From the IMG/VR virus record IMGVR_UViG_3300025617_000006: 64,000 nt of DNA; one strand, written 5' to 3'. Of the stretch, positions 27,526 to 45,990 are shown one piece after another. The translations under genes were made by a program, and so were the position numbers. The DNA is from a virus. Each line of letters starts with the position of its first letter. Position 1 is the first letter of the stretch. The notes beneath the pieces were generated by a model. The model had not been told where the DNA came from. It was given only the letters and a program-made list of their open reading frames with translations, and searched no databases.

Positions 27526-27542
27526 ATTAATATTTAGTTAAG

Positions 27543-27565
27543 AAAAAGCCCGCACAGTGGCGGGC
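27543..27565 (-). terminator. Intrinsic terminator downstream of pqqA
   Basis: GCCCGC-CACTGT-GCGGGC followed by TTTTTCT. Confidence 0.8.
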
Positions 27566-27630
27566 CTTTGTTTATTCACAATCTAATGTTTCTATTAGTT
27601 TGCTTATATCTATTTTTGGTTCTTCATCTA

Positions 27631-27702
27631 CTACTTGTTCATTACATACATCGTTACTTCGAATCCGAATCTCATCTCTGTTGCTGTCGGTGTTGTCCAC
27701 AT
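27631..27702 (-). CDS. pqqA: Coenzyme PQQ precursor peptide PqqA (23 aa; not in ORF track)
   Basis: Translates MWTTPTATEMRFGFEVTMYVMNK*. Has the W-x-x-P...R-x-G-F-E-V-T-x-Y PqqA signature with the E-x-x-x-Y residues that form PQQ. AAGGAG RBS at 27709-27714; tandem TAG TAG stop. Confidence 0.93.
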   Translation of the reverse strand: MWTTPTATEMRFGFEVTMYVMNK

Positions 27703-27745
27703 AGTGTACTCCTTAAATTAAGTTAATAAAATTGTACTGCAATAC

Positions 27746-27751
27746 TATTTA
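27746..27751 (-). promoter_or_regulatory. Late-type promoter TAAATA upstream of pqqA
   Basis: TTTAAATAGTATT, the same motif seen in the other intergenic gaps. Confidence 0.6.
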
Positions 27752-27805
27752 AACATATCTAGAAGCAAAAGTCATACGTATAATCATTAAAAGAAAGTAA
27801 AACTG

Positions 27806-27952
27806 TTACTTACCCTGGCCTTTATATTTTTTGTAACTACGTCTTTTGCTTTTATTCATCATACATTTAGAGTGTTTTCCTCCACCTATTGATGTTTTCT
27901 TTTTCGTAGTTTCGTGTGCTTCTATATTCGGGTTAAATTTAACACGAGCCAT
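27806..27952 (-). CDS. Small highly basic protein (48 aa; not in ORF track)
   Basis: MARVKFNPNIEAHETTKKKTSIGGGKHSKCMMNKSKRRSYKKYKGQGK*, with an AAAGG RBS. The KKTSIG...NK.KRRSYK.Y.GQG pattern is one I recognise from small aquatic-phage proteins. Confidence 0.75.
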   Translation of the reverse strand: MARVKFNPNIEAHETTKKKTSIGGGKHSKCMMNKSKRRSYKKYKGQGK

Positions 27953-27981
27953 AAAACCTTTCGGTTAGTTTTTTAGTCATT

Positions 27982-28012
27982 AAAAAAGGGCGAAACTAAG
28001 TTCCGCCCTTTA
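27982..28012 (-). terminator. Intrinsic terminator after the major capsid gene
   Basis: AAAGGGCGGAAC-TTA-GTTTCGCCCTTT followed by a T-tract, directly after the gp23 stop. Confidence 0.85.
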
Positions 28013-28032: not shown

Positions 28033-29196
28033 TTACGAGAATGTTACACCTGCTACTGACACACGTGCCAAGTAGTCTGCCGCATTACCAAGAGATGATG
28101 CAGTGTTGTTTAACTCTACATAACCGTATCTTGTCATGAACGATACTACTGGTTCGAATGTTGCCGGATCAAGTACAACACCTGAAGACATAAGCGGGAT
28201 GTATGGGCAATAGAATGCCGCCGCATCTGACTCTGATGTGCCTTTGTAACCAACAAGTACGTCTGTTGTGTCGGCTGCATATGCGTCTACGTATACTTTC
28301 ATTGCTCCGTTAAGAGTACCTACTAACTTAGTGTTAGTTGGTGCATCAAAAGTACCTTCAGTTGTTCTTGCGAACGCTGAAGTTGTAGCAGACTGTAGTA
28401 CAGTTAACGTATGCGGTGATACCACTGCAAAGTTACCTGCGCCACGGCGTGTACGCTGTGCAATTTTGTTAGCCGCTCTGTTGATCATTACTGCAAGTGC
28501 CGCATGTTCGTCACCGACGAATGTAGCAGTACCTGATACAGCAGTTTGATCATATTGAACGTCTGACTCAGCCGCTCCAGCCAAGTTGCGTAGTGAAGAA
28601 AGAACTTCTTGGTCGATTTCAGCAGTAATTTCTTGTGCTAATGCCGCCATGATTTCCGCTTCCACGTCAATGCCTTGTTGTGCTTGTGCGTCTTGTGCAG
28701 ACTCAAAAGTCCAACGTGCTGACAATTTACGTGTCTTCGCTTCGACTGTTTGCTTTAAGATCTGAATTGACAAACGCTTACCTGCTTCACCTTCAAGTGC
28801 CGCAGTTGCTGATGCCTTATCAGTTGCTCCACCACCGGAATAGCCTAAGCCAATCTTAAATGGTGATAGTGCTTCCTCACCTGCGGTTACGTCATCAAGT
28901 GTGTCTGAATAACGTACACGTAAAGTGTGGATTTGGCCGACTGGGCCAGTCATTGGTTGTACACCAACGATTTCGTTTGCGATGACTGTTGGCATCACAC
29001 GTCTGATTACTGGTAGGATAACTCTGTTTAAAGTTGCAACATTACCTGCAGAAGTGGCACCTGCTGTCGCGCTCTCATTCAAATACCTTTTAGTATTCTC
29101 TAGAGTTGCGGACATTACAGATTTTTTCGTGCCTTGTAGGCCTTCAAGTAATGCGCTTTTAGTTTCCTGCCAGCGTCCTTCTAATAGTTCTGACAT
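28033..29196 (-). CDS. gp23: Major capsid protein (T4 gp23-like)
   Basis: ILPVIRRVMPTVIANEIVGVQPMTGPVGQI, TVEAKTRKLSARWTFE.AQD, EITAEID, RTRRGAGNF, AAAFYCPYIPL, FMTRYG. Confidence 0.96.
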   Translation of the reverse strand: MSELLEGRWQETKSALLEGLQGTKKSVMSATLENTKRYLNESATAGATSAGNVATLNRVILPVIRRVMPTVIANEIVGVQPMTGPVGQIHTLRVRYSDTLDDVTAGEEALSPFKIGLGYSGGGATDKASATAALEGEAGKRLSIQILKQTVEAKTRKLSARWTFESAQDAQAQQGIDVEAEIMAALAQEITAEIDQEVLSSLRNLAGAAESDVQYDQTAVSGTATFVGDEHAALAVMINRAANKIAQRTRRGAGNFAVVSPHTLTVLQSATTSAFARTTEGTFDAPTNTKLVGTLNGAMKVYVDAYAADTTDVLVGYKGTSESDAAAFYCPYIPLMSSGVVLDPATFEPVVSFMTRYGYVELNNTASSLGNAADYLARVSVAGVTFS

Positions 29197-45150: not shown

Positions 45151-45990
45151 TTATTTGCTTTGTTCTTCTTTGAGTGCTTTTTGTGCCTGTTCCGCTTGCC
45201 GTTCAAACTCTCCTTGCATCTGTCTAGTATATGAAGGTGTCATATCATTCATTTCTAAGATGTCATCTCGAATATTTTGATTGCGTTTTTCAATGTTAAT
45301 AACACGAACAAAACTGTTTGTTACAGCCGCAGTATAATAAGCAAATGGATTTTGTGATTTTGACTCGTCAAATTGTAGTCCAATCTGTGCAAGTTGCAGG
45401 ATTGCTTGACCGCGCATTTCGTCATTGTAAGTGTAACCACGTACATTGCCTCTTGTTGCGTATCGGTCACATAACTTCATCCACATTCTTGCAAGTTTTT
45501 CGGTTGCCTTACCACCCGACAGTGTAAAGTTACCATTAGACATTCCGCCCTCCCAATGACTTTTACCTACACATTGTAACTCTCCGTTATCGTCAAACTT
45601 AAAATGCTGATATGGAGGAAAGTTTAATTTTACTTTTGTGTCTGCTATAGTCTTTGGATTCTTTTTGCGTCCTTTTTCTTCCGGAATATGGTCAAACGTC
45701 ATGACTCGAAAGATTAGTTCTTCTTTTGTAATTTTTTTATAGTCAACTTCACACTCGGCTTGCTTAACTTTTTCACCAGCCATTTTTCGTGATTGGTATT
45801 CAGCATCACCAAGGCGTTTTGCTTTATTACGTTTTGCTTCTGCAATTGTTCTAATGTTAATTTTATCAACACTAGGCAAAATTATGTCAAATTGTGCATA
45901 ATCACTGTCAGTAAAACTTGAAAATGATGACTTTGACTTGTGAATTTCCTTCAACAAGTCCTTATTGTTTAAATAGTTTACTTTTCTCAA
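45151..45990 (-). CDS. gp55: Late-transcription sigma factor (gp55-like)
   Basis: NYLNNKDLL, NVRGYTYNDEM, FDESKSQNPFAYYT...NSF...IEKR; TTG start. Confidence 0.88.
   Translation of the reverse strand: MRKVNYLNNKDLLKEIHKSKSSFSSFTDSDYAQFDIILPSVDKINIRTIAEAKRNKAKRLGDAEYQSRKMAGEKVKQAECEVDYKKITKEELIFRVMTFDHIPEEKGRKKNPKTIADTKVKLNFPPYQHFKFDDNGELQCVGKSHWEGGMSNGNFTLSGGKATEKLARMWMKLCDRYATRGNVRGYTYNDEMRGQAILQLAQIGLQFDESKSQNPFAYYTAAVTNSFVRVINIEKRNQNIRDDILEMNDMTPSYTRQMQGEFERQAEQAQKALKEEQSK

Follow-up and report, generated by a model that had tools for sequence, protein, structure and literature searches.

The synthesis of PQQ uses up one PqqA peptide per PQQ molecule formed. PqqA peptides comprise about 22–39 residues with an N-terminal W-x-x-P motif and carry the hallmark E-x-x-x-Y, the Glu and Tyr of which provide the atoms turned into PQQ. 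Methylotrophic bacteria hold several pqqA copies, some of them orphan and highly expressed, with five orphan copies in Hyphomicrobium (PMC9851590); several copies are also reported for Methylovorus MP688 (Ge et al. 2015, as cited in PMC9851590). Viral PqqA has been published for T4-like phages of Lake Baikal with predicted Methylophilaceae hosts (population VP_266; Coutinho et al. 2020, Microbiome 8:163, PMC7678222); the suspicion in the initial annotation of the present DNA that phage pqqA might already be known was thus justified.

The pqqA locus described here is located in a viral DNA stretch of 64,000 nucleotides (the window, i.e., the whole stretch analysed). It shares with the Baikal VP_266 phages (PMC7678222) the phage-borne pqqA, the T4-like background, a G+C content of ~35 % and the proposed boost of PQQ for methanol oxidation. 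However, the VP_266 phages also carried methanol dehydrogenase, which was found neither here nor in five large relatives, and neither an overlapping frame nor a promoter box nor mobility of the cassette features in PMC7678222. Phage pqqA itself is therefore already known; new is the combination of a host-type box, a candidate late-type promoter and a putatively overprinted second frame.

Cultured Methylophilales phages (P19250A, Venkman, MEP301, MEP401/402, Melnitz) likewise hold an intact, orphan and moron-like pqqA with its own ribosome-binding site, mostly its own terminator and often an antisense orientation. The six cultured-phage copies examined differ in that the +2 reading frame across pqqA is closed and no tail follows (see below), and cultured-phage pqqA resides in early/recombination regions or near tRNAs rather than after the capsid gene. 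A tblastn search against 50,697 phage records yielded 12 with a pqqA match, 10 of them methylotroph-linked: P19250A (96 % identity), Venkman and MEP301 (91 %), MEP401/402 (83 %), four Melnitz isolates (73 %) and one spring-water podovirus; the other two were weak matches in Acinetobacter phage records. A near-identical pqqA is present in every cultured Methylophilales phage matched, phages of OM43 and LD28 included, and is mostly unannotated: none of the six GenBank records inspected (five cultured Methylophilales phages, one uncultured podovirus) annotates pqqA on the correct strand, and no cultured methylophage record examined lists the gene. In P19250A (L001; the other records inspected are L002–L006) the unannotated pqqA lies at 2501–2569, rendering incorrect the statement in PMC7678222 that such genes are missing from this phage. 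In the records of Melnitz and MW202481, pqqA is covered by a spurious CDS annotated on the opposite strand. The gene goes unmentioned in the papers describing Melnitz, MEP301 and MEP401. Since 23-codon genes escape annotation, phage pqqA is far commoner than the literature suggests. Many mutually unrelated methylotroph phages retain the gene.

The features of the window on which the analysis is based are the following:

28033–29196, minus strand: gp23-type major capsid gene (Pfam Gp23, 326 bits; phrog_138).
27980–28010, minus strand: intrinsic terminator of the capsid gene, hairpin plus U6 (-20.4 kcal/mol, z = -3.3), the hairpin being conserved in relatives.
27806–27952, minus strand: very basic 48-codon ORF (phrog_17967, E = 3e-8) between the capsid terminator and pqqA.
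27771–27790, minus strand: host-type pqqA upstream box TTAATGATTATACGTATGAC, matching ATGAWWWT[ACT][AC].
27743–27755, minus strand: candidate promoter element TGTTTAAATAGTA, with a T4-late-type TAAATA at 27746–27751, also readable as an extended -10.
27709–27714, minus strand: Shine-Dalgarno AAGGAG, read from the sequence, 6 nt before the ATG and 8 nt before the GTG.
27631–27702, minus strand: pqqA, 23 codons plus TAG, with a second in-frame TAG at 27628–27630.
27572–27700, minus strand: overlapping +2 ORF of 42 codons, with a GTG start inside ATG-TGG and the tail ...LIETLDCE.
27537–27568, minus strand: cassette terminator, 9-bp G+C-rich hairpin plus UUUUUCUU (-17.3 kcal/mol, z = -3.1).
45151–45990, minus strand: gp55-like late sigma factor (phrog_12791, E = 7e-79; phrog_234, E = 2e-22).

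The 72-nt ORF proposed as pqqA in the initial annotation matches PF08042 (Pfam; 38.5 bits vs a cut-off of 21.1, E = 1e-9) and TIGR02107 (NCBIfam; 37.6 bits vs a cut-off of 20) over its full length, in both cases well above the curated cut-offs. Its 23-residue product contains the leader residues W2 and P5 (W-x-x-P) as well as the previously proposed E-x-x-x-Y pair (E15-V-T-M-Y19), and the ORF is a genuine, intact pqqA whose peptide nearly equals that of the host. TAAATA, AAGGAG, the double stop and an own terminator, all listed in the initial annotation, are likewise present at this minus-strand cassette. A spacer of ~60 nt separates the pqqA stops from the terminator hairpin, which was also picked up by a separate terminator scan. 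An Rfam search of the cassette returned nothing above threshold. Compared with 114 viral copies, the window pqqA differs on average at 9.6 codons synonymously and at 2.0 non-synonymously, a synonymous excess that is partly built in, because the search pattern fixed 11 of the 23 codons.

A back-translated DNA pattern for the core EMRFGFEVTMY was scanned in a species-genome collection and in IMG/VR. The core matched at least 120 loci in species genomes, and the named ones among the matches listed are almost all Methylophilaceae (Methylotenera, Methylophilus, Methylopumilus, Methylobacillus, Methylovorus, OM43), with a few labelled otherwise (Rhodocyclaceae, Pseudomonadales, 'Acidovorax' MAGs); the pattern was built on a Methylophilaceae-type sequence, and the matches listed do not establish exclusivity to the family. 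Apart from A6T, the peptide of the window equals the bacterial variant met most often (52 of 120 loci among the matches listed), in agreement with the near-identity to Methylophilaceae PqqA stated in the initial annotation. IMG/VR contributed at least 120 viral loci. Peptide and upstream box together suggest that the phage most likely infects Methylophilaceae, plausibly marine OM43. Hence the methylotroph part of the OM43/Methylopumilus host initially proposed is upheld at the level of Methylophilaceae, and the data are equally compatible with either of the two names.

As initially noted, pqqB-E are absent from the window: tblastn with PqqB, PqqC, PqqD and PqqE of a Methylotenera pqqABCDE operon, verified beforehand, gave nothing across the 64 kb. 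In contigs of five large relatives (100–160 kb), used as proxy for the rest of the phage genome beyond the window, neither PqqD nor a PQQ alcohol dehydrogenase was found and nothing reached the cut-off for PqqE; the radical-SAM matches were weak and generic (14–31 bits vs a cut-off of 381). Among the loci listed, pqqB-E are found near pqqA in 17–27 of 120 bacterial, none of 120 viral and none of six cultured-phage cases. The lack of pqqB-E is not disqualifying, since pqqB is missing downstream in about half of the assessable bacterial pqqA copies as well. The processing partners must come from the host. The present gene resembles the orphan pqqA of Methylophilaceae in its stand-alone 23 codons, own promoter, (near-)identical peptide and upstream box, and differs from bacterial copies in several respects: the +2 frame is closed in 115 of 119 of them and no tail is present, the box lies ~120 nt before the ATG (~85 nt in the phage cassette), and the element TTTAAATA is lacking in all but one of 119.

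The window represents a phage structural block encoding capsid, prohead protease, T4-type portal and baseplate hub proteins, together with SbcCD-like nucleases and a SegE-like GIY-YIG endonuclease; no tRNA genes were found in it. The capsid DNA is nearest to that of Rak2/121Q-like jumbo phages, and as contigs of relatives with 100–160 kb were rated 28–44 % complete, a genome of roughly 360 kb is estimated. The cassette does lie next to the capsid gene as initially described, with the 48-codon ORF and the capsid terminator in between. This terminator is predicted to set the downstream units apart from the capsid gene. The 48-codon ORF has no obvious promoter of its own and occurs only in some relatives (L343, L349), being missing in most others.

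In the closest relative (L247, 96 % capsid identity), the region is collinear on both sides and the slot is occupied by a different, non-coding filling of 307 nt. Of the best 80 capsid relatives, two carry pqqA near the capsid gene, where it is inverted (e.g., L223). Another T4-like group (L359) holds the same cassette between a structural gene and gp32/UvsX/UvsY, and in Venkman, MEP301 and MW202481 pqqA is antisense to its neighbours. From these arrangements, the pqqA cassette appears to be a self-contained, mobile moron, i.e., a phage auxiliary metabolic gene in a variable slot just downstream of the capsid gene.

Several further elements were observed in the vicinity of the slot. The filling of L247 (3720–4030; ~300 nt) is G+C-richer, contains no ORF and has no Rfam match above threshold; it is possibly a structured RNA not yet catalogued. 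About 500 nt downstream of the window cassette, a 'freshwater-2' RNA (Rfam RF02980; 27004–27088, minus strand; 70.7 bits, gathering score 49.9) lies between late genes of 139 and 144 codons; it recurs at the same place in L247 (4481–4566, plus strand; 73.8 bits). A conserved stretch absent from the window is present just past the pqqA terminator in L206, L329, L338, L343 and L353, and after pqqA in L246. It reads ...aaata, a few bases, t[at]tacgttca[tg]cc..., followed in L206 and L246 by ...gggacggaagtagcat...gcgaaggaacgcac; it might represent either a small structured RNA or a leader belonging to the gene that follows.

Upstream of pqqA, the box ATGAWWWT[ACT][AC], which the initial annotation does not list, occurs in 84 of 117 bacterial regions (mostly at -106 to -140) versus 3 of 124 controls, and it is present in all 26 distinct phage cassettes bearing the tail. 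It forms one half of the palindrome CTCATGAAAATCATGAG (consensus of bacterial loci L007–L126), probably the operator of a regulator of PQQ precursor supply. The phage form of the box includes the 13-mer ATGATTTTACGTA; an OM43 single-cell genome and one Methylotenera MAG carry it unchanged in front of pqqA. Homology of the whole promoter to the OM43 pqqA promoter was considered and rejected, as blastn-short gave no significant similarity beyond the box; the claim is therefore restricted to the box. By this match, the phage cassettes seem to retain a host regulator site.

Downstream of the box follows the TAAATA element. The motif TAAATA[CG] occurs 32 times in the window, 12 times within the 2580 non-coding bases (4 % of the window), and 13 sites (9 of them non-coding) lie at most 100 nt upstream of, and facing, a same-strand gene. 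The sequence TTTAAATAG of the cassette fits the enriched [A/T]TAAATA[C/G] motif of the window and is one position off the T4 late consensus TATAAATA; the extended -10 reading also fits. In tail-bearing cassettes, TTTAAATA is kept in 24 of 26, including inverted or relocated ones. The gp55-like factor encoded in the window is likely to read TAAATA promoters in trans. The leader of the window cassette folds no better than shuffled sequences (z = +1.0). In L359 (7090–7135, minus strand), a stable hairpin with a T-run, resembling an attenuator, is situated between the promoter element and the ribosome-binding site. This 5'-UTR hairpin is conserved in the L359-type cassettes; the window leader has no such fold.

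A second reading frame, not mentioned in the initial annotation, overlaps pqqA over its whole length. Scanning IMG/VR with the back-translated pattern L-[L/I]-E-T-x-D-C-E-stop for its tail yielded 53 loci where chance would give a few; at 51 of these the tail immediately follows a pqqA, and in all 24 distinct variants the tail lies in the +2 frame relative to pqqA. The spacers in between have eight different lengths (8 to 41 nt), all 2 mod 3, with growth by GAAGTA units; read in the pqqA frame, the spacer contains numerous stops. The GAAGTA units translate to Glu-Val repeats in the +2 frame, giving forms of 41 to 47 residues (L327, L331, L369, L375 and similar) and thus a small, expanding acidic linker in the second protein. 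The cassette terminator begins a few bases past the +2 stop.

Counted over distinct sequences, 24 of 25 tail-bearing copies and also the window itself keep the +2 frame open across pqqA, the single closed one being the degenerate L373; the tail-bearing counts are not independent and hence inflated, since these cassettes all share one promoter architecture and probably one ancestor. By comparison, the frame is open in 6 of 232 other copies (4 of 119 bacterial, 2 of 107 other viral, none of six from cultured phages), and one of the two open viral copies carries a divergent tail. The +2 stops are avoided in the tail-bearing set at codon junctions 3/4, 5/6, 8/9, 14/15 and 22/23, whereas 219 other copies contain 46 stops at junction 3/4, 20 at 5/6 and 100 at 8/9. 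The first +2 start is the GTG located 8 nt after AAGGAG, and most variants lack an in-frame start upstream of it. Predicted products comprise 36–47 residues and are mostly acidic. Gene callers predict the second protein in 11 unnamed clusters, which does not in itself speak for translation; searches of the protein atlas, PHROGs and Pfam and a search for longer homologs retrieved no family or longer homolog, and the AlphaFold model is a weak two-helix structure (pLDDT 60).

Two other interpretations of open frames in the cassette were discarded. An independent 11-codon micro-ORF for the tail was rejected, because the ATG at its nominal start is missing in about half of the variants, the residues ahead of it are maintained through synonymous changes, and its frame never varies relative to pqqA. 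Since PqqA contains no Leu or TCA-Ser codons, ORFs on the opposite strand of the cassette are necessarily open, and they were dismissed as genes; CTA and TTA codons of the tail close the antisense partner of the +2 frame.

On these sequence properties, the second frame behaves like an overprinted coding gene: it appears to be kept open by selection, possesses a start with ribosome-binding site and changes by coding-type substitutions. In this sub-lineage, a 42-residue acidic second product is probably made from the same mRNA. We tend, by a modest degree, towards a dual-coding gene born in phages, in which one ribosome-binding site would serve an ATG and a GTG 2 nt apart and an acidic protein of 36–47 residues ending in [K/R]L[I/L]ET[L/Q]DCE would be overprinted on a captured host gene; this protein would be functional in infection and may act on the PQQ pathway or be the substrate of a phage radical-SAM enzyme. 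The arrangement resembles overprinted viral genes (reviewed in PMC8227390) in that a new frame is placed on an older, conserved gene and specifies a short, probably poorly structured product. It is unlike them in that the underlying gene, of 23 codons, encodes a cofactor precursor and derives from a host, and the two starts are 2 nt apart behind one ribosome-binding site. A literature search found no paper pairing pqqA with an overlapping gene.

Alternatively, the second frame might be untranslated, the stretch after pqqA representing a 3' untranslated RNA or a DNA element and the open frame being inherited within one cassette lineage. The common promoter architecture of the tail-bearing cassettes would agree with this, as would the lack of an ATG at the head of about half of the tails, the unusual position of a GTG two bases past a strong ATG, the weak AlphaFold model and the failure to find a family or longer homolog. 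We nevertheless regard it as rather unlikely, in view of the pattern of substitutions. T is common at the third position of the non-critical codons 5, 11, 12, 13 and 19 (7–18 of 24) but occurs in only 0–1 of 24 at each stop-creating position, and plentiful synonymous turnover without closure (bar L373) argues against mere inertia. F14 is encoded by TTC in 23 of 24 tail-bearing copies vs 50 of 219 others (p about 1e-12), against the codon preference of the phage (TTT 290, TTC 65); at the frame-neutral F12, 13 TTT face 10 TTC in the tail-bearing set. Moreover, Arg and Leu codons of the tail vary by multi-base synonymous changes (CGT/AGA, CTT/TTG/CTA), the eight spacer lengths with GAAGTA growth all preserve the frame, and stops fill the spacer in the pqqA frame. 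A programmed -1 frameshift near the end of pqqA, adding the tail to PqqA as a C-terminally extended precursor, would explain why tails are so tightly linked to pqqA, why they are always -1 (= +2) relative to it and why the linker preserves the frame. Yet such a late shift would not need the avoidance of +2 stops from the 5' end (junctions 3/4, 5/6 and 8/9), which favours separate initiation, and no conserved slippery heptamer precedes the pqqA stop; this mechanism is accordingly judged improbable.

For transcription, the cassette could be read from a host sigma-70 promoter under the host pqqA regulator, early or throughout infection, rather than from a phage late promoter. In this case, one would expect the host-type box at a fixed place, as found in all 26 cassettes, and the succession ATGACT, 17 nt, TG-n-TTAAAT indeed has the layout of an extended -10 promoter; small phages with no gp55 homolog in view also appear to express pqqA from their own signals. 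On the other hand, bacterial (1/119) and other viral pqqA copies are hardly ever preceded by TTTAAATA, the element matches the motif preceding the phage's own structural genes, and the phage encodes a late sigma factor; exclusive reading from a host promoter is considered the less probable case. The late promoter initially claimed is supported by the enrichment of TAAATA[C/G] upstream of genes and by the gp55-like gene, although the same element also reads as an extended -10 sigma-70 promoter; a phage late promoter is plausible, and the two readings are compatible, not exclusive. Least credible of all is that the peptide acts as a decoy blocking host PQQ synthesis or that the DNA is a recombination or attachment site matching the host pqqA. 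Near-identity to the host gene and the location of pqqA adjoining recombinase genes in several small cultured phages would suit such roles; however, all processing residues are kept, so the peptide should be a substrate and not an inhibitor, and the many synonymous differences from host copies along with an own ribosome-binding site, promoter and terminator fit a translated gene rather than an identical attachment core. Large lytic T4-like phages, too, carry pqqA.

Taken together, the locus is with good confidence best explained as a stand-alone pqqA of a jumbo T4-like phage feeding the PQQ pathway of the host, with a probable second product. The cassette, in the order host-type box, TAAATA element, ribosome-binding site, 23-codon pqqA and terminator, would act as a self-contained unit. 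During infection, probably mainly late and via the gp55-like sigma factor, the phage would make extra PqqA; expression may also answer the host regulator through the retained box. PqqD, PqqE, PqqB and PqqC of the host would convert the phage peptide, one per PQQ, and the extra PQQ would keep PQQ-dependent methanol dehydrogenase and the energy supply going while host transcription fails. PQQ is a stable cofactor, which counts against this helper-gene reading. The HMM identity, the host-like peptide and the orphan position in a phage late block support the auxiliary metabolic gene initially proposed, and from them we infer its metabolic role.

Phage pqqA represents a clear case of a virus carrying just the consumable substrate of a host cofactor pathway, and it ties infection to the turnover of methanol by the abundant OM43 and LD28 methylotrophs. 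The box kept by the phages offers a handle for tracing the regulator of PQQ synthesis in Methylophilaceae. If the second frame is indeed translated, its product would be a protein overprinted on one of the shortest known genes, and the cassette would illustrate, in compact natural form, how a gene can be born and how one ribosome-binding site can serve two starts.
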